DNA of 64,000 bases from Bilabrum cf. latius. Lineage: Eukaryota. A program made the translations under genes and the position numbers. The stretch covers positions 372,001-436,000 of the forward strand of contig OZ237756.1 of NCBI GenBank assembly GCA_965178125.1, read 5' to 3'. Of this stretch, positions 1,857-37,038 are shown piece after piece (position 1 is the stretch's first letter; every line of letters starts with the position of its first letter). Below the pieces are notes generated by a model. It was not told where the DNA came from. It did no database searches and worked only from the letters and a program-made list of their open reading frames with translations.

Positions 1857-4445
1857 TCACAACCCAAGGAAATACGCGTGCCCCCCAGCGTTCTGAATCG
1901 GGGTGGCAACGGGCGAAGCCAGCGCCCACTCGTACCACGTCTTGGTGGCGCTGCTGCACCGCCACAGGTGCACCTCCACCAGCTCGCCCTTCTTGACAGG
2001 GACGGGCCGCCGAAACGGAAAGTAGATGGGAAACCAGCTGTACATCTGAGGACTGTGCGTCTCTGGCTTGATGCTGCAGAGCACATCCCGGAACAGCCGA
2101 GCCTCGAAGTACCCCGCAAACCCGTGCATGGACGCAGAGGCAGATGCACGGAACTGCAGCGCAGTGTACCGGTCGTTGGCCAGCTCCCCGGGACGCGTCC
2201 TGTTGGGATGCACAAACCGGAAGCACGGCTGGCTCCCCGCCAAAGGCGCAAAGTTGTGGAGCCTCGCAACGTACGCCGTGTCATACCCCTTCAGCTCGTC
2301 TTCGTTCTGGCCCTTGACCGCATTCCAGAGCTTGGAGCTGGTGATGGGCGCGGCAAAACTGGTGTACTCGTAGGGTATGGATATGCCCCCCGGCTTCAGG
2401 AACCTCTGCGCGCCGTCTAGGCACTCCGGGCTCAGCTCGTTGTCCCCGAAGCTGCCCAGGAGCTCGCTCACAAGGATGTCGGCTTGCTCGGGTGCCTTCC
2501 ACGTCCGCATGTCGTGGTTCACAATCGTCACACGGTCGCCCCACCCCTCCGTGAGTGCCCGCCCCCTCAGGGTCACAACCGCGTTCGGGTTCTTCTCCAC
2601 TGCATACACCTTCACGTCCCTGCCCGTCTCGTCTGCCGCCCGAAGTGCCCTGTGCACCAGAGGTCCCCTGCCCGCGCCAACCACCATGAGGACAGTCCGC
2701 TAATCCTCGGGCGTTTCTTTGAGCGCCCCAACCATGGCCTGTAGGTACAGCCTGTACTTGACCGGGTCCTGCTCGAAGGTCTCGTAGGTGCCGCTCTCAA
2801 GGTTATCCATGAGCGGCTGAAGGGGCGCCTGCAGGTAGTCGTAGTACGGGATCTCGTATTCGTCCTTGTCCGTTGGATCCGGCAGGTCGCTGCACAGCGC
2901 GTGGATGGAATTCACGTACGCGATATGCCCGTGCCTGTGCCGCGCAGGCCCCTCCAGAATGAACTGCGCGCCCTGGAGGTACACCCTCTTTGCGAATGCG
3001 GCGTGTTCCCTGGGCAGGACGGGCAGGCCCGTGCGGGATTCCATGGAAAACAACGAAGTATGGATGGCCATGGCCTTGACCGGCTCCCCGATCCAGCGGT
3101 CCAGTTGTTCCCTGGGAGGCAGTTCCTTGGTCAGCTCGAGGAAGGCGCTCACGTGGGGGTTCGAATCGCAGAGGGTCCGGAGGCCGTCCCACACCCGCCA
3201 GGGGTGCTCCACGTCCTCGGGAGATGGCACGCCCGCGGGTGTGACGAGTGCGTCGGTGCTCGCGCCTGCGGCGCCCCCTGTGGCCGCACCGCCATGCGAT
3301 GCACCCTCGGTCAGCTCGCTCAGCGACATGCTCTTGGAGCCCGCCGTGAGGTGCCTTGCCGGCGGAACCTGAGGCGGCGCCGCACAAAGACCGACACTCT
3401 CGGCCTCGGCCTTGGCAGCCGCAACTGGCGTGGAACTGGGAGCGCCATCAACTCCTCCCGAGGTGCCCGCACCGGATGCGGCTCCGGCTCCGGTGACCGC
3501 ATAGCTTACAGCACCCATCCCCTCCTCACCACTCAACGACCCCAATGCGGGGAATTCCCCCGAGGGGATCACCCCCCAGCTGGGGTGCCCCTGCGCGTCC
3601 TCGATCGCGTCCCCCAGCCCCGCAGTCCCCTCCCTCACCCTCAGCAGCAACGAGGATTCGGAGCCGCGGGCCAGGGAGCAAGCGGCAGCAGCGCCAGAGT
3701 TTGCAGCAGGAGCTGCATCCAACCCATCTGCTGCCCCCTTGCCGCCATCACCATCCATGGGCGCTGCGCCGCTCCCGCTTCCGCTGCGGCCCGCCGCTCC
3801 CGCCACAGCAGGGACAGCAGGGACGGCGGGAACGGCGGGCGGACTCACAGCATCCGGGGAGGGGGCACCAGCACCAGCTGCGGCGCCAGCGCTCGCAGTG
3901 GCAGATGCGGGAGTGGTACTGACGGAGGCAAGTGACGCCGCTGCTGCAGGAGAGGAGGCCTGAAGCAGCAGGGCGTCGGCGGCACCGGTGCGCCTGACGA
4001 GCGGTACGCGGATCCAGAAATGCAGGTACGATTGCCCTTGCACGACCTGGTTGATACACCTGGCCAGGTTGTGATACCTATCTCCTGGCAATGGGGCCAC
4101 AACGGCGGTGACGCCGAGATGAGAGGCCCACGCTGCTTCCTGCTTGAACGCCTTCACCCCGGCTTCCCTGACATCTGGCGATGATGCGTCCACGTCGATC
4201 CAATCGGACATTTTGCCGACTACGCTCGAGTTCCAAGTATCCCCCTTCATAATCATGTCAGATCGAGTAGCCGGCGTCTGCCGAGCATCTGACATTCCGG
4301 CGGCATCTCGCCTTGAGCGCGGATGGAACAAGGGAGCAAGCACATAGTCAAAGTCCTCCTCGCTGCCGACCGCTTGTCGCATGTCTCCCACCAAATCAGT
4401 GGTATGGGGAAGATCTTTACCAACCATGACCCTGGGCCACGACAT
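1857..4445 (-). CDS. PRMT5: Protein arginine N-methyltransferase 5
   Basis: Motifs [65 protein letters not shown] and SWFPIYFP. ORFs 2700..4484 and 1857..2687 are in frame across one TAG (2700-2702). Ends TGA. Start could be 4445 or 4484. Confidence 0.95.
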
Positions 4446-4735
4446 GGCAATGTATGGCTTGGTGAATTGGGGTGCTATTTGCATCCTGCCATTTCAGCAG
4501 AACCCTGTGGAACCTTCGCCGCCCAGGAACACACCAAGGCTTGGTGACCAAGCGTGCCATCATAATCACAAGATCTCTATCCAAACAATCAATTTCAGTC
4601 TTCCATGCAAAGTAGTCCAGAGCGACGCGCGCTTCCATACAGCCTCTCCGCCCGCACGCTGTGGCAACACAGGCCCCAGCACGCGACACACGGCGAAACT
4701 TGAAGTGCTCCCCGCCACCGCTATGCTCCTCCTCC

Positions 4736-6445
4736 TCACTCATCGGTGGCCTGCCTCACCCTCTTCAGAGGTCGATCCACCTTCACCGACTGCGTGAACG
4801 GGTCGTACTTGGCATTGAAGCCCTTCCTCAGATTCTCGCAATACCGCCTCATCCTGACCTTGACGTCGTCGAAATCTTCCGCCACAAAGTATACGGGCTG
4901 GTAGGTAGTGATGGGATAGTCCGTCCCGGCCACGTCGGCGGGCACCCACGGCCTGTACTCGGGCACATCGTCCGTGCCTCCCGCCGGTCGTGTGGGCGAG
5001 CACGCGTACTCGAGTTCTCCAAAGGAACTGAGCAGGCCGGCACCATAAGCTTTCTTCTCCCCGTTCTCGTTGCAGAGACCGAATTCGACGCTGAACCAGT
5101 AGCAAGTGGCCAGTTTCTTGATCTCGTCATCGCTAGCGCCCAGCGAGGCAAGCCCGATCTCCTGGGAGAACTCGGCGAAATCAGGGTCGGCGAACAGGGG
5201 CACGTGGCCTAGCAGCTCGTGGCAGATGTCCGGCTCGGGCGTGTACAAGGGCTTCGTGTGGTGCCGGATGTACTACGTGGAGAAGAACACCCTGAACGCG
5301 AGTGCGTTGAGGAAGTCCCTTGCCGATAGGAGTCCGCTGACAGGACGCAGGGAGAACCCGGTGCAGCCCTGAAGGAACTGGGAGATGTCCTCCAGCTGGG
5401 GGATGGACCTCTCCCCGTACCCGCAATTTCTCTCCAGCAGCGGCATGATTTCTTTGTACTGCTTCACCGCGTACTTGTCCGTCTGCGCCCTCAGCTTGTT
5501 CCAGACGGTAGCCCATGTCTCGACCTCTTCTTCCGTGTATTCCACCCGTGGAATGGGTGTACCATGCCTGTATGTGAGCGCATTATGCACAATGAGCTTG
5601 CGGCGTTCTCTGTACACAGCGTCGGAAAAGCCGGGGTGGTCCGCCTCCAGGTCTTCGCCCGCGTCCAGCGTCTTTGTGCTGAACTTGTCAATGTCCTGGA
5701 CGCGTGTGGGGAACCACGGTACCTCCAATGGGGGCTGTGCGTCCACAGTGAGAGCCTGGGCGTTGAGTTCCCTGATGAGATCGTCGAGTCCCTGCACCGA
5801 TTTCCCGTCGAAGGACACCTCGAAGTCGAAGTTCGGGTCCATCCCCTTGGAGGGCTTGCTCTCGATGTACGTGAGGTTCACGCCGCGGTCCTCGAATATG
5901 CCCAGCAAGCGACGGAGCTCGCCGGGCCTGTCGCGAATGGTCAACTATAACGAGGTGTGACCGGCATCCAGCTGCGAGCAAGAGAAACGTAAGGCTGTGA
6001 ATGCGACAAGATCGATAATCGCGTGAACTCGTCGTGCTTGGCGTGGACTAGAATCGACACGCGAGTCTTACGTCCAATGATTCTCGCTGCCCACCAGAAG
6101 ACACTGACTGCTTCACTTTCTTGTGCCCAGTCACGTGCCCTTCAGCTGTCTGCGAGCAATGATACTAGCGAATGCCACACAGTTGGCCATGATCAATTCT
6201 AGCTCGAGCATACTTGCATGCCACACAGCGTATCCATGCATTTGAGAGCATGGATCGTTGCATTCAATACCACAAATTGATAGAATAGACCAAAATCAGC
6301 ACTGACTAGGTAAAGATGCGAGCAGCTAGGTGCAACAGGAAACCAATCTCACCGAGAGCTAGCGGATACCCACGAAGCGAAAGTTACGAGCTGCACATGA
6401 TCCAATGACCTGTCGCAGGCCCCTTAACTGTCTTAACCCTCGCAT
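4736..6445 (-). CDS. PAH: Phenylalanine-4-hydroxylase (ACT domain plus biopterin-dependent catalytic domain); exons 6445-6353, 6149-6072, 5971-4736
   Basis: Motifs [36 protein letters not shown](TAG)[29 protein letters not shown] and [13 protein letters not shown]. In-frame TAGs at 6359-6361, 5945-5947 and 5273-5275. Ends TGA. The two 5' exons are inferred from frame-preserving GT-AG sites. Confidence 0.92.
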
Positions 6446-6618
6446 GGTAATGTATGACAGCGAAATGTAGGATGGCCCTTCTTTAAATCATATTTGTACG
6501 TTACAATGATTATAGTACGGTGCTAATGGATCAAATACGATTTTCTGCAGCCAACCGAATAATGGACATCTGCGAATTCTGAGACCTGCTCTTCGTTTTC
6601 GTTGCATCCAACTCTAGG

Positions 6619-9446
6619 ATGTAGAACTATGCTCTTGCGCTTTTGACCACTGCAGCTGTGATGGGAGTTTCGGCCCTGGAACAGGGACTGCTGCCCCCAT
6701 CCAGCTGCACTCAGCTTGAGGCAAACACCGCAAACATTGAGTTCGACTTTTCGAACCGTTGCATCCGAGGATCTGTAAGTTGTGGCAATCCATTTCGCAC
6801 TGTGTTGCCGTTGATGATGTACTGTCTAGAGCCGTATGGTGTGGATACATTGAGTGATGGCAGAGCCGCGTGCGATCTCACTGGCAATCACACTGCGACA
6901 GTCGCATAACTTTATCGTTTCAAGACTTTTCGCGCGGCTTGAGTCGTAATCAGATTATACTTTTTGTTATACAAGTGATTTCGTGTACCGATTGTCCATG
7001 TGGGCTGCCTACATGAGCAAGCCGTTGACCTGTTAATTTGCTCGCCCGCGCAGATGGACGACAACGACGTCACGCTGAATTTCACAGTCACCCCTGCAAT
7101 GGTTGAGGGTAACAAGCGTGTGGATTTCTTCCTGTGGAACATCGACCAGGCCCGGTCCCCGACCTTTAAGGTGGACGGCGCCCAGTGGCTGCAGGCCGTG
7201 GATCTCACAGACGACCAGGGTGAGAGAAGGCAAGCGCCAATTTCAACATTAAATTTGCAATTTCGTTGGGCCAGATAATTTCGGCCGATTCAGTTTTCCG
7301 CATTTTCCTCCCCCACCCCCTGTCAACCCTCATGCAATGCAGGCATCAACGGCGCACGCGTTGGCCTGGTGGAGGAGGGCAGCACCGACACCACCACGTT
7401 CATCGCGACCTACCACGGCGATTTGTGCCCTGGCGACTACTCCATCCAGTTCCAGGGAGTGAACGGGAACTACGGTATCTCGATATTCAGCTTCGAACGT
7501 GAGAAAGAAATGAGCACTGCATGCCATGCATGGGATTGAAGTGTGGGCCACTGCCACACCATAGAGAAGATCTACTCACTGCCATTCGAACTCGTCACAC
7601 CGTACGCACTCGTCACACACCCAACGCAGAGACTGACCTGATCGCCGAGATCTCCAACGACGGCACGGACGGCAGGCCATCCAACGTGGCCGCATATTTC
7701 ATCAGCGGCGCAAACTTTCCGACGTTCAACTTCAAGGGGGATTTCACTGAGAAGCGGTATGCCACCAAGAAGCTCATGTTCAACACCACCGGGGACCTGC
7801 TGTACTCCGGCGTAAACTTCCAGGCCGGTGCTGCCTTCCCCAGCTTGGGGCCTTCATCTGACCAATGGAGGGCGGGTGACATGACGCTGGAGACCGTGTG
7901 GAACAACATTGGGAGGCCGTCGGTTTCGGCTCAGGGCTCCGGATTCTTTTTCGGCATTGGTACTGACACCGTGGACGACGTGTTCTTCAACTGGGCAGAG
8001 AAGGGCCCCGTGTCTTCCGTCAACGTGAGCGTGGTGGGACACGTCGACTACCCCACGGTGTCATGGTCCAGCCCCAGCGGGAGCGTTGTGATTCCGAGTG
8101 ACGAGTCCTTCGAGATCGTGAGGATCGGGCCCATGCCCACCAACTTCCACCGGTTCCAGCCCGACGGTCTCATGCAGTCCGTCCGCATGACGAGTGGGAC
8201 CGGCGAGAACCTGGGCATGGGAGGCGATGCCGAGTTCACCTGCCTGGTGGACAACGTGCCCACCCAGGCAACCACCCAGACGACCTGCACCTCCGACGAG
8301 ATTCCGGCCAACAGCCCCACTTCGTTCAGTTCCAACTTCATACTGACTCCCAGGGAGCGAGACACCCCCGCGTACGTGTACTACAGGATCGAGAGGACCA
8401 CGTGTTTGACCACCTCGTCCGCTTCGTCCGGCCTGACTGAGGACCCCGCCCTGAATGTAACCTTCACTTTGGATTACCAGTCCATCGAGGGCGAGTGCAT
8501 GGATTACACGGACTGCTACGTGGACGGGGACGACCACCCGTCCCTGCGAACCTCTTTCTCCTCCACGGGAAACACAAACAAGATGATCCAGTGCGTGGGC
8601 ATGCCCAAGCGGTCCAACCCCGACTTGTTCGAGTCCCGCTGCATGGAGTGCACCAGCGACTGCCACTGCCCCGGCGGGTCCTACTGCCACACGGACAACG
8701 GAGTGTGCAACGACGGAGTTCGGAACTACCTTTGCGATGGCGACTCCCACCGCATGGCGGGCGTGTGCAAGGTGAAGGACGCGGCCAAGGAGATCATCGG
8801 CAAGCCCTGCCGGACAGACCAGGGGGCGACGTACAGCATCGTGCAGAGCAAGTACCGCCACGTGAGCCTCCCCGGCAGCGCACTCATCATCTCGGAGGGG
8901 GCTGCAGATGACAGGTCCGACGGCATCACCGGCGGCGGTTTCTGCGGCGAGGCGCGCTACTACAACTCGTCCAACGTTGATTTCCCGTCGAGCAACGTGA
9001 AGCGTTCCGGCGCCGCCCGGGCGATCCTGTGGGAAGGCCAGTGCGTCAGCGGCATGTGCCAGGAGTGCAGCGATGGCGAGGTGCAGTGCGCGAGCTCGCA
9101 GACCGGCAACGGTGGCGACAAGATGTGCATCCGCGGCCGGCTCAGGGACACGATCATCGTGGACCAGACCATCCGTACGTTCACGAGCAACACGGTGGCA
9201 GGCACCGCGCTCTCCGGTGTGATGATGATCATCGTGGTGCAGATCATCTTCGTGGTCTACTTTGTCGTGGAGCGTGGCGATGCGCACCGCCAGGAGGAAG
9301 AGGCCAAGGAGGAGAAGAAGAAGGAGCAGGCCGAGCAGAAGGCCGAGAAGGCCCGCAAGGAGCTCGCCGCTCACGACGGCAAGGTGATCGCCAAGGAGGG
9401 CGGAAAGAAGAAGGGCGCAGGCGCCTCGGAGAGCAAGGAGAACTGA
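6619..9446 (+). CDS. Cys-rich type I membrane/surface protein of unknown function; exons 6619-6774, 7054-7219, 7343-7498, 7630-9446
   Basis: Starts ATG TAG, giving MQNYALALLTTAAVMGVSA (signal peptide). Three GT-AG introns preserve frame. Has Cys clusters (CMECTSDCHCPGGSYC, CVSGMCQEC), a hydrophobic TM segment near the C-terminus and a Lys/Glu-rich tail. Ends TGA. Confidence 0.8.
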
Positions 9447-9828
9447 GCGAGAACGAGCGAGCGCTGATTATGTGCATGCTGCACTCTTTCAGTTGAACGC
9501 TTTGATGACTGGGTAGATTTGAACCGGGCTTCACTCTGGTTTCGAGCGACTGGTACATCAGCATTGGTTTTGCCATTGCCTTGCATTGATTCCCCGCGCC
9601 TGGTGCGGTTCGGGCACGAAGGGCGGTGCTGGTAAATGTATCTCCACTCAGTATGACTTCAATCAGGTTCGCATCAGTCAACATTGTATGCGCGGGTCTA
9701 CTTAGCCCCCTTCAACGAAGTGGAAGTGGTGGAACGACCGTGAATATTCAAGCAAACTTATATGAAGCTGTTACTTCTTAAATTAAGCTGTGCAGTGGCA
9801 TAACATAGCCACCTAAATAGCAACCAAA

Positions 9829-12132
9829 TCACTATCTCCCGTCCCGAATCACCTCTGCGTCAACCACCTCGGCCCCTCCGCTCGTAGCAGCAGCATCCCC
9901 TCCCGCCGCACCAAAGTCCTCCTCGGGCCCCGCCGCCGTGCGGTCCGCAATCACGTGCGCCTGCATCATCGGCTCCCCCTGCCCCACCGATCCCCCACCC
10001 TCCTGCTCCTCCCCCTCACGAGCGAACATCCCCTGCCCCTCCTGGTCCATCTTCTCCAACTCAGAGGCGAGGTGCACCAGCGCCTCCACAGTCCCCTGCT
10101 CCCGTAGAAGCCTGCTGGGCGGTGTGACGAGTGCCTGGGCCCGGCCCCCGGCCCCCGCGGCGCCCTCCGCCCACAGCCTTGCCACGAACGGAGGCAGGGG
10201 CGCGGCGAGTGTAAGGAACGTGGGCGAAAGCACCTTGTGCTCAAGTATCTCAGCGTCGATTCCCTCCTCCGCCGCTGGACCTCTCCTGCCCTGCTCCATC
10301 GCAAACTGAACGGCTCTCCTGTACTCCAGGTGCAGGCCCACGTGCCGCAGTGCAGTGCGCCTGTGCAGGTGAAGCGCCACGTGCACCGCGGCCCGGACCA
10401 GCCGGCAGAAGTCCGCGGAGGACTGCCGCATGGATTTCGATTGCGGGTCCTATTCGTCCATGGCGATCTGCTCGGGGTCCAGGCCCAGGCTCCGGAGCTG
10501 CATCTCCAGCTCTTCGAGCGGCTCCCCCTTGGCCCTGGCCTCGGCTACCATGCCCGCCGTGCTGTCCGCGGCGATGATCTGCTCGAGGAGGCCCAGGACC
10601 ACGGGGTCGTTGGCGGAGTGCGTGATGATCGAATTGGCGGCGTGCCGGGCCACCTCAAAATGATGCCTCTTCCTAGCAGTGGCGGGATCCGAACCCAGGA
10701 GCTCCTCGGGCAGCTCAGGCCGCTGCACGATGTGCTTGGGCAGGAGCAGCTCCGGGCTGGGCATGCTGACCTGCGGGAGCTGCGCCTCGGCCTTGGCAGG
10801 GTCCACCTTGGCGGTGGCCTCGAGTTCACGAACCTTCGCTAGCGCGTCCGCCTGTCTCCTCGCAGCGTCTGGGTCCACCGCTTCCCCGTACTCGTCCTGG
10901 AAATCGAGCCATTTCGAAGCGATGAGGCACACCTTTCGGACGGGGGAAGGGTCCCCCGTCGCGTAGAAATTGGCCCACAGAGCGTCCACGGTGTCGCACG
11001 ACACCTGGGCCGCGGCGACCTCCCAGTCAAGGGGGGAGAGAACCTTCTCCCGGGTTCCTTCATCATGCTCCTCAGCATCCCCCTCAGGTAACCCCGTCTC
11101 CTTGGCTGCTTGTTCCCTGGGCTGCTCCCCTGCCAACTCAGCCAACGCGCTCTCCCGCAGTGCCACTGCCATGGACACGTGGAAGGCACTCCTGGCCCAA
11201 GGCGGATTGTCCGTCTGTCTCGCACCCTGGTAGAATGCACGCTCCTCGTCCCCCCCCAGTATGGGGACGGGCCACGAGAGGGGGTCCATGGGGAATCGGT
11301 CCCCTTCGCTCTCCGGGACGATGCACCTGATCCTCCTCTCGAACGCCTCCACCACCGTGGCAGTCGTCCCCTCCTCCCCGGCCTCCGCTGCTGCCCTCGC
11401 TCTCGTGAGCAGGTCGTCCGCCAGCTTCGTGCCCACGTCCTCCATGCCCGCAGCACCGGCCTCTTCGGCCTGGAGCACGACGAAGAGCAGCCCCTCCCTC
11501 CTCTCCGCTGTGGCATCGGGGCTGGCCACGTGTGCGGCGCGCTCCACCAGCTCGCTCATCGATCGCATGATGGCCATGATGAAGTCCTCGCTGTCGGAGG
11601 TCGCCGCGATGGCCTGGCCGAAGAAAACAGCCTGCTCCATCTGCGAGGACCCGGTGAAGCCATCGGGCGACTGGAGCAGGTGCGCGAATGCCGGCAGGAT
11701 TAGGTCCGGCCTGGGCAGCGTGTGGAAATGGTGCATCCAGGCCGCGACTGGGCTGTACCCTGCATCTCGCGTAGCTTTGGCATACGGTCTGTACAGCGAC
11801 TCGAATTCTCCCAGGCGCTCGTGGATACCGCGAAGGGTGGGATCAAAGGGAGCATCCGCATTCGACCCGGCCGAATCTCCCTCATCGCCGGAACCCGAAG
11901 CCTTGGGGCCGCCAGACCCCCGAGCACCTCGCGATTTTGACGATTTGCTGCTGCGCTGCCGCGCTAAGCTCCGTGTGCTAACGTGGAGTGCGCGCGAGCA
12001 GCCAAAGTTGCCGCTGGGAACTACGCCAAATGGCCGCGCGGCAGCGCGGCCCGCCAGGCTAGACCGGGCGGTCTGGAGACAGCTTCTAGCGGTACGCTTG
12101 ATTGATTGTACAGATGACACCCGCAAAGACAT
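9829..12132 (-). CDS. Hypothetical protein with a mitochondrial-presequence-like N-terminus
   Basis: N-terminus MSLRVSSVQSIKRTARSCLQTARSS is Arg/Ser-rich with no acidic residues. ORFs 10450..12255 and 9832..10431 join across TAG 10450-10452. Ends TAG-TGA (9832-9834, 9829-9831). Confidence 0.7.
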
Positions 12133-12230
12133 GATTTGATTATTCTGGCTGTGCTCGAAAGCACAACTAGTCACGGAGCTGTGACGAGCAATACACGTCG
12201 GTGCGTGTATTGGCCATTCAAGTGCACAAT

Positions 12231-14179: not shown

Positions 14180-15465
14180 TCACCCCCACAGATCGTCCTC
14201 CACCCCGTCAGCATGAGTCACCGACAAGAACACGCGGTCGGTGGACGTTGTGACGTGCTTGGGCACCGTCGTACGGTAGCACCCCTCACCGTACGACGCA
14301 CTCTGCGGCCGCAGCCTCCCGTACCTCCGCTCCCCGATCCCGTTGTCCCGCACCCCCACGTCATTGGTGCGGATGTGCCTCCTGGACGACAGCCGATCGT
14401 CGCTGGCCATGTGCCTGTCATACGTGAACACGCGCCTGCCATTGCCACCGGACCTCCTGCCCCCCCCCTCGGAGACCGTGCCCCTGCCCCCGCCGGTTCC
14501 CCCAACCCCCCCTCCCCCCACAAGGGTCTCGTACTCCGCGGCGGCTTGGGACCGCCGGTCCGTGTGACGAGTGGCACCGGTGAGTCGGGCTGTTGCTGTC
14601 TGTGGCCGTATACTGCTGCCTCCGGGTCCGTCGCCGCGGCTGCTCCTGCTGCTCCTGCTGCCGCGGCGCCCGGCAGCTGCCATCCGTCTCGGGCTGCCCC
14701 GCATTGGGGACGGGGAGGGGTGTCCCCTTCCCGTGTGACGAGTGCGGTCGTACCTCGGGGGTGCGACCGAGCCGTCAGCCTTTGATTCCGAATCTCTTCG
14801 GATGCTTGCCCTGCTGCTGCTGCCGCGACGGCGGCCGGTCACGGACAGAGCTGCTGGGCCTTCCGGGTGCTCGCCTGCTCCCCGCGCACTTGCTCGGACA
14901 GGCCCGTGCTTGCTCGGTTTTTCCTGATTCGACTTCCGCATGGATTCTTCGGCTTGCTTCAGTCCTTTTTCTCTGGATCGTTCCTCCCGCGCGACTTGTT
15001 CCCTGTACTGCTGCATTCTACGGAAGCTCGAATACTCGCCGCGCATGTTGACCTGCTTGATCCCGAACCCGAGCCTGGGCTTCTCGGACCTGTCCCAGCC
15101 AACGATGTCTACGTACTTCTCTGGTTTATATGTTATTTTGGAGAAGCTAGTGCCTTTCTTGATGGATGGGACGATGACTGCTTCCTTCCGGTTCTTGGGA
15201 GCTCCTCGACCGAGCTTGCTGGGCAGCGGGGGATCCACGTACTTGTCTCGCACGTTACCTGCAGATCGCGAGGATAGGGGTAGAAGGAACTAATATTGAC
15301 ATGTTAGCGGCATTTCGTTTTTGTGGACCGAACAACGCTGCGATCGAAACATGTGCGTCATCGTATACTGGTACGTGCGTGCTTCGGGTACCTCCGAGCG
15401 AGCTCACCATATTTCTTCCCGAGTAAATCGCGTGCTCCTGACACTGAATGCTTTACTGTATACAT
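14180..15465 (-). CDS. Basic hypothetical protein, possibly cilia/flagella-associated; exons 15465-15408, 15258-14180
   Basis: GT-AG intron 15407-15259 joins MYTVKHSVSGARDLLGKKYG to NVRDKYVDPP. The segment LGFG...RGEYSSFRRMQQYREQVARE is reminiscent of axonemal proteins (not verified). Ends TGA. Confidence 0.55.
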
Positions 15466-15635
15466 GTCTCCGCTGTGAACTAGCAACGGACCGATACTTG
15501 CGCCGCAAATGAGGGACCCGCGTCAAACGGATAGACTGCCAGACCGCGCGCATCATGACGAGCGGAGCAACGGCAACTTTTGGTTGCAACCGGCAATTTG
15601 CACGACCTGTCTTTGTTTGTACCGGGTCACTACGT

Positions 15636-16832
15636 ATGAATCGAATTCAAGGTGCAACGCGACCGTTTGTTCGTTTAGTACTATGTCGTCACGGTCAGAG
15701 CGCTAACAATGTCTTGATGAGGGAGGGTGTTGAACAGTATGCAAAAGGACGTCTTGCAGATCCTCCTCTGACACCTTTAGGCCATGCGTAGGCGTATGCA
15801 GCTGGCTTAGAGACATCATAGTTAATAAACAAATTTGCTGAGACTTTGCATAAAGTGTGGGTGTCACCTATGAAGCGAACGGTGCAAACAGCTGCTGGAA
15901 TTGCTGCAGGATGCGGTGCATCGTCACCGCTGCCATTCGAGATCCGAGCTGATATCTTCGAGCGCGGGGGTATATTCGTTCGTGAGGGATCTGACTAGCT
16001 AGAGTCGATTCAAGGCTAGCACGAACATGAAGGCAGGATGCCTCGGCTGGAGCTGGACAGCGCGTCGATCAAGCAGCTGCTTCCGGGGGCGCGCATCCCA
16101 CGCGGGACTGTCACGAGCCAGGGTTGGAGCCCAACCGCGCCGAGCTACCAGCGAGAAACCGGCTAGCAAACGTTGAATATAGTAGCTGGTGTGGCCGAGT
16201 CGTTGTGGGAGGAAGCGGAGAAATGGAACGCAGAAGCGCCCGCGTCCACAGGAACCAGCAACAGCCCCGGACCGTAGTCGGATGACCTGGCGGATTCTGG
16301 CTCCGGGTTATTTCTGGATCCCCTGCCGGCCGTCGAGGCAGCTCCGATGAGTCCTGGCAGCATGCGGCAGCTGATGCTGGTGTGTCACGCCGACTTTATC
16401 GACTTGCTGGTGCGGTTCCTCACCGGCGGGGAGTCTGCCGCGAAAGCGCACGTGGATACGGCAGCGGACGGGGAAGAGGTGGTCCCCGATGCACCTGGTG
16501 TAACGAGTGATAGTGAGACCATTAATGGTGTGACGTTTGGGTGCGACAGGCCGCCGGTGCGACCGCCGGCGAGGAGCCATTTCCTGTCCTACAACTGCGC
16601 CTGGACGACCGTTGACTTGTTCCCTGGGCGGGCCGTGCGAGTGGTGCACGCAAATCGCACGCAGCATTTGGTTCGTCGCGCCGACGTGGTGCGACTGCTC
16701 CTGCAGCAAGGGCGTCTGCCGCTGCCAGTGTGCGAGGGGATGGAGGACGGGGCACGGCGGGACTTGCTTGACGCCAGCGAGCAGGATCCCGACGCGTGGC
16801 TGCTATCCGGTTGTGCGGAGGGCCTGGAATGA
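15636..16832 (+). CDS. Histidine phosphatase / phosphoglycerate mutase family protein
   Basis: Motifs LVLCRHGQSANN, DPPLTPLGHA(TAG)A, VWVSPMKRTVQTA and LVCHADFI. One 399-codon frame with six TAGs (15789, 15819, 15996, 16017, 16164, 16275) and no internal TAA/TGA. Ends TGA. Confidence 0.88.
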
Positions 16833-17022
16833 ATATACACGGATTGATCGCCGGGAGGTACACGTAGCACAGTGTCGTTTCGGCGAGTTGGTCGCAATCG
16901 AAGGATGAAGATGGATAACAGGATCGGACAGCAAGAATGCTGGGATTCCATTCAGTACGTCTGAACACAATTAATACGATACTACTACCCAAGCCAAGTG
17001 CATCTATTTTAGTACTAGTAAC

Positions 17023-17791
17023 ATGGATGATTCGTGTGGGTCCGGGCGTGCTGGTGTTGCGACCCAAGCGCGCGTTCTTGCCTTCAACATGTGGAAAGCA
17101 CCAGGCGCGGAGTGCGAGCACCTCAAGTGTTTGATGCCACCTGCGGTCCATCAAGCATTGCATCAGTTTAACCACTAGCCTCTGGTTGTGATTCAGGTGC
17201 AAGGTCCTGGGCGGGGAGGGAAGAGCAGCCTGCTGAACCTGTTGGCCGGGTGGATAACAAGGTGCGCGGGCTTGTCAGCCCCCGAATCGGTTGCTTTGTG
17301 GGACGATCTGCGGAGGTCGATCCCGTATGAGCACATCCAATGTGATTGTGAAGGAGTATGGCATCCCGAACAGGTGTGGTCAAAAACAATGGAGGGCGCA
17401 AAGGTTCTGAATGTGTTTAATGTCTCGCACTCCTCAGATCCGTGCACCCAGGGTGCCGAAGGCTGCTTTATATATCTTCCAGCCGGTACTTTCGGCCGCA
17501 GTGACCCTTTTTCTGTCTTACTGATCGACTGTGAGGGTACGGGGGACAAGTCCAAGGAATACCACAGCAAGGTGATGCTTCCCGGGCTGGTATTCACGAG
17601 CGCCGGCGCTGCCATCGTGCGCACTTCCAACGCTGGGCTCGTGAACGACGCGCTGGACCAGCTGGGCCACCTTGCCGAAGCAGCAAGGGTGTACCAGGTG
17701 GGAATCAAGAGAATGAGCAAATCCACTGGTGGTGCAGCGGGTGCGGTTGCGGGAGCCACTGCCGCCGCTGGGTCCTCTCCCCCTGCACCAC

Positions 17792-17825
<34 letters not shown>

Positions 17826-20004
17826 GGGTGCTGCGTGTGGAGGAGCATCGAGCGGGTCAAGTCATCCACGGGGAGCCGCTGCCCCGGACACCAAACTGGG
17901 CGGGGCCATTCTCCTCTGCAATGACTACAGCCTGGATCTTGACGAGGGGCAGACCACGGAGGGGCAAGAAAGGGCCGTGTTCTGCAAGGAGCCCGAGCCC
18001 GAGGGTGACGGCGACTTGGATACAGATGACGAGGCAGCGGCCAGGAAATAGATCCGCAGCCGAAACCGCAAGAGACGGCTCCTCGATGGCGCATTCAGGC
18101 ACAAATTTCGATGCACCACGGGGCCCCCGGGGCACGGCTCTCTCCGCCCATGCCCGTGCACCGGGCTGCTTCGGGACCTCAAGGGCATCGCGAGCAGAGT
18201 GCTGCTTCCTATCTTGCAGGACAATACGCCGCGCTGCCTGTTCGGCCGCCCCGACCTGCCCCTGACCGTGGGCACTTTTCTGGACATGCTTCCCTCCGTT
18301 GTGGAGGTTGCAACCACCCAGGACCTGGACGTGCCCACGCTCCTCGAGACTGCGGTGGGCCGGGGTCTCAAATCCGTCAAGGCGTCGGCCGATGCAGCCG
18401 TGGCACGCGTGAATGCGGCGTGCGACGCATTCGTCAGCGAGAAGCTATTCGTATCGCGGCAGGTGGTGGACACGTGCAAGCAGGCCATGGAGCGAGAGGT
18501 AGACCGGGCTGTGCTCGCTGCCTCGGACAGGGCCCCCTTGTGCAAAGGCAGGCCCGAGATCGAAGACATCCGTGCAGGGGCGAAGAAGGACCTCGTGGGT
18601 GCGTGCACTGCACTGCAAGGGTATCTCGAGGGAACATCCTCGTCCGCGGGCGAGATGGCCTGGCTCATGGTGCAGTGCATTGCAAGCGAGGTGCCCCTCC
18701 CAGCCCAGGAATCCGCGAGGCAGCTCAAACAGGCGCTCGAGGTCGAGGTGGCGCGCCTCCCAGCTGATCTGCAGCACTCCCCAGTCGACGATAGCGCGCT
18801 GTCTGAGGCAAGAACGGCCCTGGGGCGCGTCCTGGCCGACATCAAGCGCGAGCAGCAGCGAATGTTCCGCCCGGAGTCCAGCCGAGGCCCCGCTGCTTCG
18901 TCTTCAGCCATGCCCGAGGAGGACGAGGATGCGGAAGAGCCCAGCAGGACGGTTCGGCAGGGGATGGCAGATGATCTCAGGTCCAGGGTGCGGGATGCAC
19001 TGCGCGGAGCCATGCACGTGAGAGTATCAGAAGAGGAGCAGACCAGGCAATAGAGTGCGATGTCGGGTTTTCAGGCGATGCTCGAAGCTGCAGCGGACGT
19101 ACGGGATGAAGGGCATGCCCAGAGTGGTACAGCTGCAGGGGCTGGGGCTGGGGCAGGATCGGCCTCTCCATTTGCCGGTGATTTTGGGGACCCGACGACT
19201 GCTGGTAGCAGCGGCCCCGCCTCTGGTGCCGGCGCTTATGCTTCGGAGGAGGGGGCCAGTGCTGCAGGGCGCAGCTCGGGTGATGAACCATCGCAAGGCG
19301 AGCGTGCGTCTGGGATCGAGCTAGCTGGGCTAGAGGACACTCTGCGCGCTTGTTTCAGGCAGGTGATGCTCTCCCACCCGCTGCGACCACCTTCGGTGGA
19401 GCAGGTGCTTGCGGATGTTGGGCTCCGTGAAACCGGCGAAGTATTTGCGGTGGTAGCAAGACTGCCTGGCGTGATGCAGGGGCTTGGGGGGGCCGTAACG
19501 TCTCGCGGTGCGACGCTGAGCGGCATCCTAACTCAGAGGGAACGCCTACTCGCCGCTGAGCTATCGAGGCTCGAGCAGCAGGCTAACAAGGTCTCGTGGG
19601 ACGTGCAGTGGGAGCAGGCGCGCAGGAAGCACGAAGCGGATTTGGCGAGCGACAAAGAGCAAAACGCCAAGCTTGCTGCTGAGCTGAAGGCGATCGAGGA
19701 GAAGAGACAGAAGGAGGCCCAAGAGAGCAGGGATCAGCTTAGACGGGCGCGAGAGGAAGCTAGTAAACATCGAAGTGCAGCTGCCTCGTAGCACACAAAG
19801 CTCCTCAACCAGATGAAGCAGATCGCGGCAATGGCCAAAGGGACGGCAGGCAGCGACTCTGGCGGCTCTGGCAGCGCGTGGCGGCACGTTCCTGGGGCCC
19901 TGAAGGCGTTTGCCGAAGTAGTCAGCGCTTACAAAGGGATGGCCAAGGCGGGTAAAAGGGACACGGGAAAGGAAAACGACCAAGGAGGGAGCAAGGGCAA
20001 GTAA
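17023..20004 (+). CDS. Guanylate-binding protein/atlastin-like large GTPase with helical coiled-coil C-terminus
   Basis: P-loop VIQVQGPGRGGKSSLLNLL, TQG-like G2 region and LLIDCEG (DxEG). Four track ORFs join in frame over TAGs at 17176, 18049, 19051 and 19789. First non-TAG stop is TAA 20002-20004. Confidence 0.75.
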
Positions 20005-20504
20005 GGTTACGGGTATACTTTGTGGTTACAATCATGGTGGGGCCACCTACCTACTCTCAGTCGACAGTTGCGCCCACCACGCACACTGCGTGACTTTCGC
20101 AATTGTGAAGCCCGCCAGGTGATGCTGGCTGTGTATCGCTTCTTTTGGTGTGGTATCTTGTCTTGCTTTGGTGAGTTTGAACTCGATGAAACCGTTCTTA
20201 GGATCGCCCCCCCGTGTGTATACGGGTATACCCCGTATCCGGGATCTGCTAGCATCCATACTACCCGCATCCACGTCGCCCCCTGGTATAGAAGCCTTCT
20301 GAGCAGAGTCCCAGTGCTGGCAGCTCTACTTCAGTCACTGTAGGTGTCCTTGCGCCCTCTGGTGTTCTGTGCTTGGAATCAGTCTGACCGCAGTGCGTCC
20401 TGTACATCCCCAGTGGATGGTGCATCGAATGGAGCTCGAAGGGATCAACATCGCCACTAGGTACGGTGCAAACATTCAGCTTGCGGCCTCTTTCCCACTC
20501 GAAA

Positions 20505-22760
20505 TTATGCAGCACCAAGCAACATCTCCCGCCTGCCCCTCTCCCACAACGCCCCACCCCACCACACGCTCACACTGATACTACCCGACAAAGATTCCAC
20601 ATAGTGCCAGTACCCAGGGGGAATATACAGCGCATCGCCCGCCTCTAGAGCAACCTCCTGAGCATGCTTCACGCTCTTCTGAAACGACTCGGCATCGGGG
20701 GATACGTGGATCGAGTTACGCAGCATCATTGGGATACCGCTGTCTCTGCTACTGCCTGCCATTCCAGCCGGTTCAGACGCAGCCAAAGCACCTGTCCCTG
20801 CACCTGCATTTGCACCTGCTCCTGCGCCTGCCTTTGCCGAGGTCACCGACCCTGGGTCTGGGCCTGGGCGTGCCTCTACTGCAGCCTGCATTAGCTCAGC
20901 CGTGTGTTTCGGAGCCAGCAGCACCACTCGTTTTCTGCCGTCAACTTGGCACAGCCAGTTGTGCTAGGGATCGTGGTGGAAGCAGCTCCGTGTTCCCCGA
21001 GGACCGATCCACGCCAGCAGGGTGGGCGGACCGCCGGGATCCACTACTGTTTCTTCTTCTTCTTCTTCACTGCTGGACGCTCGGTCTGGATCGGTGCCGA
21101 CGTTACTGGAGTCGGGATCCGATGGTTCTGGTCTTGGCTGTTCAACTTCGGCTTTGCCATGGGACTTGGATGTACCAGCCCTGTCGCTCGTTTCAGTATC
21201 CGATTCTTTGACTAGCTGACTTGCATCTAATGTATGCTATGTGGCAGCGGGTGCAGTGTTCTAGGCTGCATCCGACCCACCAACCGGTGCTTCACACCTC
21301 CCCACACTCCCAGAAGTGTCAGGGAAATATCGCGGAAAATATCCCGAGGCGGGCGGGGCACAGTCAACGCTGGTGCAATCCGGAATGATGATGTCGCCTC
21401 TTAGGTCTGGACAGTGGTCAAACAGATGGTACTGAGCCATGTATGCCACAGCCGCAACTGGTCTCGGCCTAGGTGCACCTCCCCGTGAGGATCGCGATGG
21501 GTGTGACGAGTGCATTGACATGGCCTCCCGGATGGCTTCCAGATCGAGGGAGCGCATGAGCGGCAGCACTGGGCTCCCGATCGGGATCGGGCACGGTGTG
21601 ACGAGTGGGCCCGTCTTCCGCGCGGTGGCGTGTTCCGTGCCTTGCGATGCTGTGCCCGTGCCTGAACCAGCTGATGACGAAGAAAAGGAAGAAGAGGAGG
21701 ATGACTGCAACCAAAATTGCCTAAAATTTGATGAAACTGCATCCCCCGCCGTGCATCGCGCCGCCTTGGCGTCGCGGGCCGCCTGAGGACCGGCTCGAGC
21801 ACCTGCTCCAATTGGTGCCGGTGAGCGAGCAGCAAGCCCCATTGCCTGTGCATCTCCTGCCGCCTTTGATCCGCTGCTTGCTTCCTCTACATCAGTTTCG
21901 GACTTTCCGTCCCATGAAACACAATCGCTGGCGGTGGAAGCGGTGGGCGGGGAGGGCAGTGCCGGTGCAGTGCGGCGCCGTTTGGCAGGAGGGGGCAGAT
22001 GCAGGGGAGTGCGAGACTGGTGAGGCTGCCTGCTGTCCCGCAGCACCGCAGTGGAATGCATGGCGCGCACAGAGACACTCGACTCTCTATCTGCACGGGG
22101 GCACTGGTTCCGAGGAGCGCCCGGGTCACGATCGATGTAGTCGAGGAGCACGTCCGCCGGGACGATGGCTTGCGACCAACTATCCGACAGGTAGTGCTCC
22201 CCGAGCTCGACAGGGAGATGAACGCCACTCAAGCGGGAATACAGTCCGGTTCTACCATGCTTGCCGCGCCATGACCGCGCAGGGGCATCAGATCTGCTAC
22301 TGCTGCTGCTGCTTTTCGATGTGGCTCCATGGTCGCCCGCACCGAATGCCGGCCATGACCTTAATGCATCCCTCACCACAGCAGGTTTCCCTAACCGCAT
22401 ATGGTTGCATAAAAATGATGGGATTGATGGCCACGCTTCATATTCCACTACGCTGCCTGATTGAATGGCGCACCGCATCCCTTGCTCGGCAGCACGACAG
22501 GCCCGAATCGAAGCAAGCCGCCTGCTGGCGTCGACTTGCCATGCAGCGGGGTCGCGGACATGAATACGCTAGCCTGTTAGTATGGCTGTGCAGTCGCGAA
22601 GCAATAATGCCGATTGTGGATCCCCTGAGGAGGCAAACTCATTGGCACTAGCTTGTGCAACCGCGGCATATTGTAGCCGCAAGGCTCCTTTTTCCCTGGA
22701 ATCAAGACACGCAGAGTGCAAACTAGTATTGATGCGCTAGAGTTGCGCTAAATCAGTCAT
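20505..22760 (-). CDS. JmjC-domain 2OG/Fe oxygenase, JMJD5/KDM8-like
   Basis: Motifs KPAVVRDALRSWPA, LPVELGEHY, YMAQYHLFDHCPDLRGDI, AWIGPRGTRSCFHHDP(TAG)HNWLCQVDGRK and GDALYIPPGYWHYVESL. Single frame with TAGs at 22737, 22569, 21261, 21237 and 20964. Ends TAA 20505-20507. Confidence 0.88.
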
Positions 22761-22855
22761 GAATATCCATATTTAGTTCTCACCGCCCCGTCGAAGGAAA
22801 ATGAAAGGCCAAGGAAGGTTCGTCACGGTTCGTTCCAGCGAGCCCAGCCTGCCGC

Positions 22856-24277
22856 TCAAACGGCACTGTCTCCACGAGCTTCCCCCTGCAACGGCGCGAT
22901 TTCCACCCCTCGAACCCCTTCCCGTTCCTCCCCCAAATCACCGCCAGCCCTAGACCTCGCCACGCCATTCTAAGACTCCTTGCCCTCACCACCGGGACCG
23001 GGACCGGGACCAGCCCCAGCCCCAACCTCGGCCACGGCCCCAGTACCAGCATCAACGCTATCACGCTATCTCTCAGCTTGGCCCAGCGGAGCCACAGCAG
23101 CAGCAGCAGCAGCAGCAGCAGTAGCAGCAGAAGCACCCGCACCCGCGCCTGCTCCCTTGTCCTTACCTTCACCCTCACCCTCACCGTCCTCACTCGTCAC
23201 ACTACCGGCGTGCATCCTGGAGTACTCGCCCACAAACGCGCCCCCCAGCACCAGGCAGCACCCTACCACACGAAGGGCACTGGGGGACTCGGAATCGTTA
23301 CCGAAGGCCCCCACGGCGTCCAGCACCAGAGACACGAACACCTGCCCTGTGACGATCGCGAGGAACATGCTGCTCACGCTGATGAACTCTGGCAGCACGA
23401 TCGCCGACACGACAAAGAACACCCCGGCCGAGCCCCCGACCCACGCCCACCAGGGGGCATCCCCCGCACCGCTGCCGCTGAAATCGGGGCCCTCCGTGCC
23501 CAGCCCCACCCCGAGCGCCCCCAAACCGGAAGCAGCCAGGCCGGTCGCAAAACTGAGCATGGCGCCTTGTTCCGGTCCCCTGAGCGCACCCGCCGCGGAT
23601 CGGTTCACGGCCGACTAAACCGGGAGCCCCGCCCCCGCCAGCACCGCCACCAGCAGCCCCCCAATGAGCCCCCCCAGCTCGGACCCAGCGGACCCAAGTG
23701 CCTCCGCCGACGCCATCACCACTCCGGCAACGGCAAGAAGCATTGAGAAACCGCGCATGTACGTGAATGGTCGCATCGGTAGTCCCAAGAAGGCAAAGTG
23801 GTCCACGAGGGCGGCCGAGACGAGCTGGCCGAGCACGAGGCCGACGAAGAACAGAGCGAAGCCCACCACTGGGGCGACAAACACGGCAGAGCCGACGAAG
23901 AAAGCACCGAAAAGCCCTCCTGTGCACTCGTACCACTATAATGCGCGCCTAAAGATTAAAGGGTCGCTGGCAGTCGTTTGTTCCCCCTTCCGATCCGTTG
24001 AAACATCCTGCTCGGCCCCATCGTCTGCGATACTACGCTCATTCTCTGGGCTTGATTCGCTTGGTGCGTAGTAAATCCGATAAATCATTGCAGAAATATT
24101 CATGATCAGAAGTATCAGATTGGCTCCTGTGAAACTAGTCAGTATCCCATACATTTCATGGCCGAGCGCTTCTCCTGCGGTTGCGTTCACGCCTGCCTGC
24201 ACCGCAGCTGTGCCCCCAACCGCAAGTGCATCAATCAGACATATTACAACAATGATCCATGGTGTAGTGGATTCCAT
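22856..24277 (-). CDS. DMT-superfamily transporter, YdcZ/DUF606-like, two internal repeats
   Basis: Repeat 1: GGTAAVQAGVN...WYECTGGLFGA...GQLVSAALVDHF. Repeat 2: GAGLPV(TAG)SAVN...PWWAWVGGSAG...GQVFVSLVLDAVG. TAGs at 23936, 23615, 23066 and 22970. Ends TGA 22856-22858. Confidence 0.85.
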
Positions 24278-24444
24278 AGAGGTCGTCCAGAATGGGAGAC
24301 GTGGCAAGTTGTAGTTTGCGCAGCGAACCTTCCTTCAATGGATTGAGGAAGATTTCCGACGTGAGGCTGACCAGCAGCGCCACCACACATTCGAGCCGCA
24401 AAGTACTGGTACCTTCTACTCCAGTCAAGCAAGCAACGGCACCC

Positions 24445-25802
24445 TCACTCCCGCGCTTTCACGACGTGCGACCACCCCGGTTTCTCCACCCTACCGTACT
24501 AGATATCCGTGATCGCCGTCCAGAACCTCTGAGTGAGCGGTCCGGCCCCCTCCTCCTCCCCCACCGGGTGCTTGGGTTCAATCGTCACATCTCCAGAGGC
24601 GATCGATTTCACGGGGCTTACGACAGTGGCCGTTCCGCACCCGAAGCACTCCAGCAGTCTACCCCCCTCATGTGCCCGCTCCAGCTCACCCATGGTAATC
24701 TTCCTCTCGCTCACCTCGAATTCGCCCCACTCCTTCCCCAGCTCAATCACGCTGTCCCTCGTCACACCCGGCAGGATGGTCCCATCCTCGAGAGGGGCAG
24801 TGACCAGCTCCCTGCAGGTCCCGTCCTCCTTCTCCATGTAGGCGAAGAAATTCATCGTGCCCACCTCGGTCACCTCCCCCCCGTCCTCGTCCCCGAGCAC
24901 CCACAGGACCTGGGTGTAGCCGTGCGACGCTGCGAGGACCGACGGCTGCACTGTGGGCCCGTAATTGGCACCCAGCTTGCTGTTCCCTGTGCCACCCGGC
25001 CATGCCCTCACGTACTTGCGCTCTGCTACCAGGCTCACCGGCTTGAATCCCTCCGGGTAGTAGGGGCCCACCGGCGCCGCAATGCAGTACACCTTGACGC
25101 TGGAGCTCGGCCCGAGCCCGAGGAAAGGGTGGGTGGAGATCGCCGTGGGCCTGAGGTAGAGAGAGAAACCATCGCCCTCAGGGATCCATTCCTAATCAGT
25201 GAGCACGAACTGCTCGATGCACCGAAGCAGCTGCTCCTTGTCAAAGGGCGGGAACTGGAGGCGAGCGCACGAATTCTAGAATCGATCCATGTTCTTCATC
25301 GGGCGGAAGAGACGGACATTACCGTCCTAATTACGGTACGCTTTCATTCCTTCGAAACATTCCAGCGCGTAATGCAGCACGCTAGCCGCGGGGTGCATCT
25401 CGAAATTTCCCATCGGCGAGATTTTGGGAGTGGCCCAGCCTTTCTCAGCATCCCAGTCTATCTCGAGCATGTGATCGCTAAACGTGGTACCAAACGTTAG
25501 CTTATCATTTTCAAGTTTGTTGCCAGGCGTCGGGTTTGGCTTCACAACGAGCTAAGATGCCTGCGCAAGTGCCGATGCAAAGAGCTAGAAACTGTGACGC
25601 AAGTGCGTTTGAACTAAAGCAGAAATTACAAGCTTTCGCGATGATCAATCACAATCTTATGATTTACTAATTAAACCGTTCCGCGCTCCTAACGAGCCAG
25701 AAAACTGTCTCTTACATCAATCATAGACGCGGAAGAACTTGAGATCCACCGGTTGGATCCGATTACACGATGCGCACGCGAGCGAATGCATGCCAGCTAC
25801 AT
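24445..25802 (-). CDS. BCAT: Branched-chain amino acid aminotransferase, probably mitochondrial; exons 25802-25716, 25560-24445
   Basis: Motifs FGTTFSDHML, VLHYALECFEGMKAY, RLFRP, SLYLRPT, RAWPGGTGNSKLGANY, EVGTMNFF, ILPGVTRDS, ECFGCGTA and DI(TAG)YG. Presequence MQLACIRSRAHR starts ATG TAG. Six TAGs. Ends TGA. Confidence 0.95.
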
Positions 25803-36992: not shown

Positions 36993-37038
36993 CATGCGAA
37001 CGACACCTGCACGAGCGTCAGCGAGACAGAGCATACGA

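Follow-up and report, generated by a model that had tools for sequence, protein, structure and literature searches.

Short sequence words that are repeated through a genome in very large numbers, overriding the codon preference of the genes in which they lie, are a bacterial hallmark, as seen for uptake sequences, the highly iterated palindrome 1 (HIP1) and Chi, and are tied to the recognition of a cell's own DNA or to its repair. The DNA uptake sequence (DUS) is a 12-bp word with dialects and a receptor of the ComP type; words of this kind reach about one copy per kb across the genome, far more than the background, and are read by a competence receptor in natural transformation. Rickettsia palindromic elements (RPEs) are palindromes that lie inserted in coding genes and measure about 100-150 bp, and the pairing-centre motifs of Caenorhabditis elegans (C. 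elegans) form dense clusters, mostly in non-coding DNA. Uptake sequences are described for the Neisseriaceae (DUS) and the Pasteurellaceae (uptake signal sequence, USS) in passages of PMC3630211 and PMC2346458, and passages of PMC5861425 give HIP1 (GCGATCGC) of cyanobacteria as 15- to 300-fold over-represented, with more than one motif per gene. Among eukaryotes, the pairing centres of C. elegans consist of clusters of 11/12-bp motifs that recruit the zinc-finger proteins ZIM and HIM-8 (passages of PMC11605055). The present analysis deals with a 12-bp word, GTGTGACGAGTG, dispersed through single-copy genes in a 64,000-nt stretch of DNA from Bilabrum cf. latius (positions 372,001-436,000 of contig OZ237756.1, assembly GCA_965178125.1), hereafter the window. 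What seems to be new is the behaviour of a signature word, known from bacteria, in what would here be eukaryotic nuclear DNA; we know of no description of a hyper-abundant, codon-fitted word in a eukaryotic nucleus.

The word has nine exact copies in the window against 0.03 expected, and none of the 100 dinucleotide-preserving shuffles, which served as the null for exact counts, reaches nine. At no more than one mismatch there are 15 matches against 0.32 expected, 14 of them within the first 25.9 kb. The first-pass annotation of this DNA had given nine exact copies, at 3239, 10122, 13606, 14562, 14733, 21501 and 21596 on the plus strand and 7607 and 23191 on the minus strand, had placed the chance expectation far below one and had seen no exact copy in the 26-64 kb half; all coordinates and strands match, the shuffles agree with the expectation, and the absence is borne out by an exact search. 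Its four one-mismatch copies (7589, 14174, 16498 and 24756) are real as well, and it overlooked two more, 2522 (-) and 56744 (+). The numbers of matches with 0, 1, 2 and 3 mismatches in 1-25.9 kb are 9, 5, 7 and 15, against 0.00, 0.12, 2.04 and 19.5 expected from 200 third-order Markov simulations; such a sharply peaked spectrum is unlike that of a neutrally decaying repeat family, which would show the reverse. When all k-mers were ranked, a 59-nt satellite of the second half came out on top, and after 20,140 bases in repeats of at least 20 nt had been masked, the top rank in over-representation goes to GTGTGACGAGTG and its sub-words at each k from 7 to 12, the enrichment scores being 48.6 for the 12-mer and 33 for its 10-mer. 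The 8-mer GTGACGAG has 15 of its 15 copies in the first 25.9 kb, despite 18,043 unmasked bases in the second part, a confinement whose chance, calculated by hand, is (25,817/43,860)^15, or about 3.5e-4. The word is non-palindromic, since its reverse complement, CACTCGTCACAC, differs. The two parts of the window and the individual copies are given below, with the strand of each gene in brackets.

1..25900, both strands: single-copy gene block with Mis12, PRMT5, C, D, E, F, G, His_Phos, H, JmjC, DMT and BCAT (n = 12)
25904..64000, both strands: contrast region without the exact word, with tandem segmental duplications at 81-96% identity, satellites, paralogs, subtilase-like genes and a reverse-transcriptase (RT) open reading frame (ORF)
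3239..3250, plus strand: exact copy antisense to PRMT5 (-), LVTP, on the margin of a lineage-variable loop, with conserved sequence setting in again 12 aa further on; unspliced RNA contig across
7589..7600, minus strand: one mismatch (GTGTGACGAGTT), in intron 3 of gene D (+), antisense, 18 nt from the 7607 copy
7607..7618, minus strand: exact copy in intron 3 of gene D (+) (7499-7629), antisense, 11 nt before the 3' splice site
10122..10133, plus strand: exact copy antisense to gene E (-), LVTP, covered by RNA contigs 10034/10058-12133
13606..13617, plus strand: exact copy, sense in gene F (+), coding for GVTS of a Gly-rich linker
14174..14185, minus strand: one mismatch (GGGTGACGAGTG), sense in gene G (-), the TGA of the word being the stop codon of gene G
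14562..14573, plus strand: exact copy antisense to gene G (-), TRHT, Arg/Ser-rich, of low coding potential
14733..14744, plus strand: exact copy antisense to gene G (-), TRHT; RNA contig 14586-15219 across
16498..16509, plus strand: one mismatch (GTGTAACGAGTG), GTA in place of the synonymous GTG, sense within His_Phos_1 (+), GVTS
21501..21512, plus strand: exact copy antisense to JmjC (-), HSSH, in the linker before the domain; RNA contig 21316-22466 across
21596..21607, plus strand: exact copy antisense to JmjC (-), LVTP
23191..23202, minus strand: exact copy, sense in DMT_YdcZ (-), SVTS, about 10 aa past the domain end
2522..2533, minus strand: 11/12 match in the conserved PRMT5 segment R-V-T-I-V, written CGT GTG ACG ATT GTG, the closest that the protein allows
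24756..24767, minus strand: 11/12 match in the conserved ILPGVTR box of the branched-chain aminotransferase (BCAT), written GGT GTG ACG AGG (GAC), the closest that the protein allows

Codon choice within the genes follows the word. With the amino acids of 6,733 codons held fixed and the synonymous codons redrawn, which amounts to a local run of the codon-aware background proposed by the first-pass annotation, 8 matches of 12/12 are observed against 0.028 expected (about 280-fold) and 3 matches of 11/12 against 0.37. At positions where the protein caps the match at 11/12, two of eight attain it against 0.035 expected (Poisson P about 6e-4, by hand). Peptides compatible with the word are written with its own codons in 3 of 4 cases for LVT, 2 of 2 for TRH, 1 of 1 for HSSH and 2 of 7 for VTS, and the probability of these codons per occurrence, taken from the codon usage of the window, is only 0.008-0.016 because the word needs the rare codons ACA, ACT, CGT, TCA and AGT. 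Together with five reading frames in use, the rare codons and the excess over the redraw bear out the earlier claim that the constraint is on DNA and not on protein; the translations on which that claim had been built (LVTP, VTS, TRHT and HSSH) are all correct in the gene models.

The near-copies at 2522 and 24756 lie in ungapped conserved blocks in alignments to solved structures, where ILPGVTR is identical in human BCAT1 and the PRMT5 segment at 2522 aligns with QVTVVSGDMREW. As both are written with rare codons within such blocks, they were made by substitution and are not insertions. Point substitution against codon preference has thus built the word at least in part: under a fixed protein, synonymous and even rare codons bring the sequence as near to the word as the amino acids permit, and where the protein is free (linkers, intron, stop codon), the exact word appears. 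A metagenome contig of 1859 nt (L001), syntenic with positions 751-2549 of the window, codes the same PRMT5 residues as CGC GTC ACA ATC GTA, a 7/12 match to the word.

For the profile, the orientation and the fold, 12 copies were accepted as real, namely the nine exact ones and those at 7589, 14174 and 16498. Among them, each of the 12 positions holds about 1.4-2.3 bits of information, and those directly outside either edge hold less than 0.6 bits, giving a total of about 24 bits with 12 of 12 positions near-invariant. The first-pass annotation had pointed out that the flanks might expose the word as a remnant of one small mobile element; compared among the copies, they have no shared sequence, no terminal inverted repeats (TIR), no target-site duplication (TSD) and no inverted partners, so that the features by which a miniature inverted-repeat transposable element (MITE), a transposon end or an excision footprint would be known are lacking. 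The copies at 21501 and 21596 are a local duplicate pair in which the word agrees 12/12, compared with about 64% likeness over the 22 nt upstream. Folding of the surroundings of the 12 copies on both strands gave a mean z of +0.3 and no common fold, only the 14733 copy adjoins a local palindrome, Rfam returned 0 matches and a tRNA scan of the window found none; the conserved structure of a REP-like hairpin or of a structured RNA is therefore not seen. GTGTGACGAGTG is a discrete 12-bp unit and not the core of a longer repeat. That it could be the end or core of a longer repeat or mobile element had been considered and was rejected on the unrelated flanks, the lack of TIR and TSD and the sharply peaked mismatch spectrum.

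Outside the edges, a G stands six bases downstream in 10 of the 12 copies (e.g. 3256, 10139), with about 1 bit; this tentative feature could be a sign of a bipartite or wider site, or be chance among the roughly 50 flank positions inspected. A second word, GGTGCGAC, which is like the first half of GTGTGACGAGTG, is found on the plus strand at 14760, 16540, 16556, 16688 and 19507, making five for the first half where 1.4 are expected, and three of these lie within 60 nt of a GTGTGACGAGTG copy; this is too weak for a claim.

Most genes of the block had been said to hold one to three copies, and indeed 8 of the 12 single-copy genes of 1-25.9 kb carry at least one. With respect to the gene, eight copies are antisense and four sense (two-sided binomial p about 0.39, by hand), and the split by contig strand, tested as for a strand skew of the Chi type or that of FtsK-orienting polar sequences (KOPS), which follows the direction of replication or transcription, is likewise 8:4 and not significant. 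A uniformly antisense orientation was rejected by the Pfam-supported gene strands. The copies thus occur in both orientations and in different frames, in agreement with the first-pass annotation, the sixth frame holding a stop and being used only at the stop codon of gene G (14174). Their density is 9 per 20.2 kb of coding sequence (CDS) versus 3 per 5.7 kb of non-CDS, i.e. about 0.45-0.5 per kb, and their spacing is Poisson-like (coefficient of variation 0.99; about one copy per 1.8 kb), while 12 copies in 22 kb compare with fewer than 0.4 expected. No copy of the 12 lies in the 5' intergenic or promoter regions of the block.

The coding copies of this set lie outside Pfam domains, and the PRMT5 loop at the 3239 copy is gapped or unalignable among homologs, so the earlier placement of most copies in poorly conserved linkers holds for them, but not for 2522 and 24756, which fall on conserved catalytic-domain residues. 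Among the contigs listed, unspliced RNA contigs cross the copies at 3239, 10122, 14733, 16498, 21501 and 21596; the lack of a listed contig over 13606, 14174, 14562 and 23191 counts neither for nor against their transcription. The copy that had been assigned to an intron is indeed intronic, as a GT..AG joint 7498>7630 is present in one contig each of X5, X6 and X7, three sequencing runs that hold spliced contigs of this DNA, though they are not on record as RNA. The relative position of the 12 copies within their genes, determined post hoc and by hand, ranges from 0.33 to 1.0 with none in the first third, which may mirror the location of the linkers.

Most of the long-resident single-copy genes carry the word, and the young DNA beside them, made up of recent tandem duplicates, satellites and a probable retroelement, lacks it. 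Across the 6,046 codons of the second half, which uses the same code with in-frame TAGs, no position permits a 12/12 match and none of the nine positions permitting 11/12 realises it.

Compared with the systems above, the word resembles DUS and USS in that it is short and non-palindromic, of comparable length and, in this block, very dense, and is present in both orientations, inside genes in several frames and fitted by codon choice, with permissive positions taken up and a lower frequency in recently acquired DNA; the under-representation in young DNA is seen here with few independent genes in the second half. It differs in that the host is a eukaryote, where natural-competence machinery is, to our knowledge, not expected, and in that no inverted pairs act as terminators. 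With HIP1 it shares hyper-abundance, about one or more copies per gene, maintenance against codon usage and an unexplained function; however, HIP1 is a bacterial 8-bp palindrome, GCGATCGC, which GTGTGACGAGTG, at 12 bp and non-palindromic, is not. The analogy to HIP1 and uptake sequences drawn by the first-pass annotation therefore fits the observed behaviour. The pairing centres set a eukaryotic precedent, as their dispersed 11/12-bp words are concentrated in one part of a chromosome and bring in a DNA-binding protein of their own, but the copies of GTGTGACGAGTG are mostly in coding sequence, Poisson-spaced and codon-fitted. RPEs are similar as repeats within protein-coding genes that leave the frame intact, and differ because GTGTGACGAGTG has 12 bp, no structure and at least two copies made by substitution.

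GTGTGACGAGTG may be a recognition word acting on double-stranded DNA, a eukaryotic counterpart of uptake sequences, HIP1 and Chi, a reading that we regard as evenly poised between right and wrong. A sequence-specific reader would bind the word as double-stranded DNA, candidates being a nucleic-acid guide or a DNA-binding protein of modular build, for instance a multi-zinc-finger array. The process served would concern chromosomal DNA and not single promoters, for instance recombination or repair, homolog recognition or the discrimination of resident from incoming DNA, and the copies would be kept by selection, possibly aided by biased repair or conversion. More specifically, and with a good deal of doubt, the word may be a nuclear self-signature, written genome-wide into most resident genes through codon choice and substitutions in linkers, and read by a dedicated factor; this reader would guide homologous recombination or pairing, or would distinguish the resident genes from DNA that is duplicated, transposed or incoming. 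The first-pass annotation had proposed a dispersed binding site, analogous to HIP1 or uptake sequences, for a chromatin, replication, recombination or methylation factor; of this, the DNA-level constraint, the distinction from a mobile remnant and the bacterial analogy stand, but its hint at a basic leucine zipper (bZIP) or cAMP response element (CRE) site is weak.

Several points weigh against a genome-scale recognition word. The evidence comes from 25.9 kb of one genome, which makes 'genome-wide' an extrapolation. The ORFs of the second half are paralogs with a lower G+C content at third codon positions (GC3, 0.61-0.70), so the contrast between the two halves comes from few independent genes. 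There is some circularity in the proportion of permissive positions realised (8 of 10), since the word itself is probably the reason why those peptides exist. L001, the sole orthologous comparison, covering the 2522 site, does not share the near-copy, and the pressure may thus be young or lineage-specific. Lastly, no close relative was found over the copy-bearing sites, the best match to the PRMT5 linker being 50% and the best of the representative search 54-58%.

Among other explanations, a regional motif that marks one chromosome domain and recruits a protein to it, as the known 11/12-bp clusters do with ZIM/HIM-8 (passages of PMC11605055), is unlikely, even though the accepted copies lie in one 22-kb stretch with none in the adjoining 38 kb and form an invariant 12-bp unit in either orientation. 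The boundary is also the switch from single-copy genes to young duplicates and the retroelement, so that the age or type of the DNA explains the contrast equally; moreover, the spacing is Poisson-like, with about one copy per 1.8 kb instead of tight clusters, and the word is written into conserved codons of unrelated genes. We know of no description of such codon-fitted writing into conserved genes for pairing-centre motifs. Unlikely to the same degree is an intragenic cis-regulatory site, e.g. for a bZIP-type factor on TGACG, by which housekeeping genes would be co-regulated. The TGACG core is contained in the word, as the first-pass annotation had noticed, and one to three copies are found in 8 of 12 neighbouring expressed genes, with none in the duplicated or retroelement genes. 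But bZIP/CRE sites are of the TGACGT(C/A)A type, in promoters and with degenerate flanks, whereas the core here is TGACGA, no copy of the 12 lies in 5' intergenic or promoter DNA, and all of them stand at a relative gene position of at least 0.33 (by hand). Typical transcription-factor sites carry far less information than the roughly 24 bits and 12 of 12 near-invariant positions of the word; in addition, the near-copies are forced into codons of catalytic domains, some 2 kb into the gene, and the carrier genes are functionally unrelated.

Molecular drive without a function for the organism, where biased mismatch repair or gene conversion turns near-matches into the word, by analogy with the shaping of CCWGG-type words that is ascribed to very-short-patch repair in Escherichia coli, would account for the equal density in coding and non-coding DNA, the random spacing, the copies pushed to the limit allowed by the protein and the young DNA, which would not have had time to gather copies. 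It would leave the same traces in these data as selection, and is nevertheless unlikely, as unconstrained one-mismatch copies persist at 16498 (synonymous) and 7589 (intron), and we know of no repair activity in eukaryotes that is specific to a 12-bp word. A 12-bp in-frame micro-insertion or transposon footprint, surviving where four extra codons are tolerated, would agree with the very sharp edges, a length that is a multiple of three, the excess of exact over degenerate copies and the location of most copies in variable linkers gapped in homologs. Both 11/12 copies, however, stand in ungapped conserved blocks and arose by substitution of codons, target-site duplications, inverted partners and shared flanks are all lacking, and the pair 21501/21596 kept the word at 12/12 while its flanks diverged to about 64%, which makes such an origin highly improbable. 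Hardly credible at all is an element acting in RNA, such as the site of an RNA-binding protein or the target of a small RNA or small nucleolar RNA (snoRNA): at least seven copies lie under RNA contigs among those listed, including two intronic ones that are spliced out, and the uniform conservation over 12 nt resembles recognition by base pairing, but the mixed orientation to transcription (eight antisense, four sense, p about 0.39) argues against a role in RNA, and there is no common fold (z +0.3) and no Rfam match.

If the preferred reading, a recognition word on double-stranded DNA, is true for eukaryotic nuclear genes, it would mean an undescribed, sequence-specific process of DNA recognition on a genome scale, and a self-signature, if true, would be the first eukaryotic counterpart of words of the uptake-sequence or Chi type. 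The word would also be a practical marker separating old resident from young DNA in this lineage. As the word is short and exact, the reading is directly testable, and the organism appears to be in culture, since several DNA and RNA runs contain this DNA.

In a set of 80 eukaryotic metagenome loci with PRMT5 relatives (691,905 bases), no exact copy and a single one-mismatch copy were found; with 77% nucleotide identity, only L001 among them is close to the window, none of the exact copies falls within the part that it covers, and its 1.86 kb have no copy at up to one mismatch. At 41 loci of at least 8 kb, no 10-mer scores above 17, compared with 33 in the window, the Markov orders differing slightly. 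Scans for two nearby copies gave matches in two viral and six prokaryotic loci, none of them dispersed carriers; every match falls in a local microsatellite-like array of GTGAC/GAGTG or in a single repeat of about 100 nt. A search for relatives of the DMT segment found none. In literature text, supplementary files being outside the search, the 12-mer and its 10-mers stand, among the matches listed, only within primers, siRNAs and the like, with no description of the word.

Regarding the host, a GC-rich protist, the window is eukaryotic and encodes PRMT5 and Mis12, the closest named relatives of its PRMT5 being those of stramenopiles, at about 50% identity. In the contigs of X5, X6 and X7, GT..AG joints are found at 6774>7054 and 7218>7342, again in one contig of each run, CT..AC joints in the minus-strand genes and a poly(A) loose end at 9653. 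The gene models are coherent because TAG is taken as a sense codon. In-frame TAGs interrupt the catalytic domain of PRMT5 (2700-2702, -) and gene E (10450-10452, -), about 30 more lie in ORFs over 1-64 kb, and they also occur in L001 (250-252 and others). Read with TAG as sense, long ORFs gain the Pfam domains Cupin_8/JmjC, His_Phos_1, DMT_YdcZ and Aminotran_4, and the true stops are TGA in 9 of 11 cases and TAA in 2 of 11. As judged from these reading frames, TAG is a sense codon in this DNA. The genes concerned include the following.

9832-12261, minus strand: ORF of gene E, with TAG read as sense
20508-22772, minus strand: JmjC/Cupin_8 gene, with its Pfam match when TAG is read as sense
22859-24334, minus strand: DMT_YdcZ gene, with its Pfam match when TAG is read as sense

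In L001, which shares 77% nucleotide identity with the window and 88% amino-acid identity in PRMT5, the order PRMT5-Mis12 and the TAG sense codons are kept, and its TAG aligns with GAG of the window in 4 of 4 cases, which favours Glu as the meaning of TAG. Human BCAT1 has Gln at two of the four TAG positions within the BCAT alignment, and the whole BCAT ORF has six TAGs. Among the matches listed from the literature, UAG reassignment appears only for ciliates, trypanosomatids and Amoebophrya.

The second half of the window is made up largely of repeated material. Tandem segmental duplications with a unit of 8-9 kb and 77-96% identity span 25904-33791, 42801-52046 and 57561-60853, and the duplicated unit carries an unassigned ORF of about 485 aa together with a subtilase-like gene (1268 or 1330 aa), there being two large subtilase-like genes. 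Five paralogs of the ORF of about 485 aa lie at 25973-27436, 40511-41956, 42881-44344, 52328-53932 and 57656-59110. An RVT_1 reverse-transcriptase ORF (61089-63998, -; more than 969 aa) runs past the window end, and an inverted repeat of 951 bp and 99.7% identity (54076-55026 / 60852-61802) lies beside it, both together being probably a young retroelement. Adjacent tandem arrays are found at 36078-37004 (8 copies of 113-nt units, 89%) and 37040-37769 (18.7 copies of 39-nt units, 93%). The 59-nt satellite, whose length is not a multiple of three, is present at 28412-28554, 45313-46498 and 59835-60546 in 2.4, 20 and 12 copies of 96-97% identity, and the Pfam matches to 'collagen trimerization' on ORFs through it look spurious. 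An exact 13-mer of the 59-nt unit is also found at 18498 (-), inside gene H.

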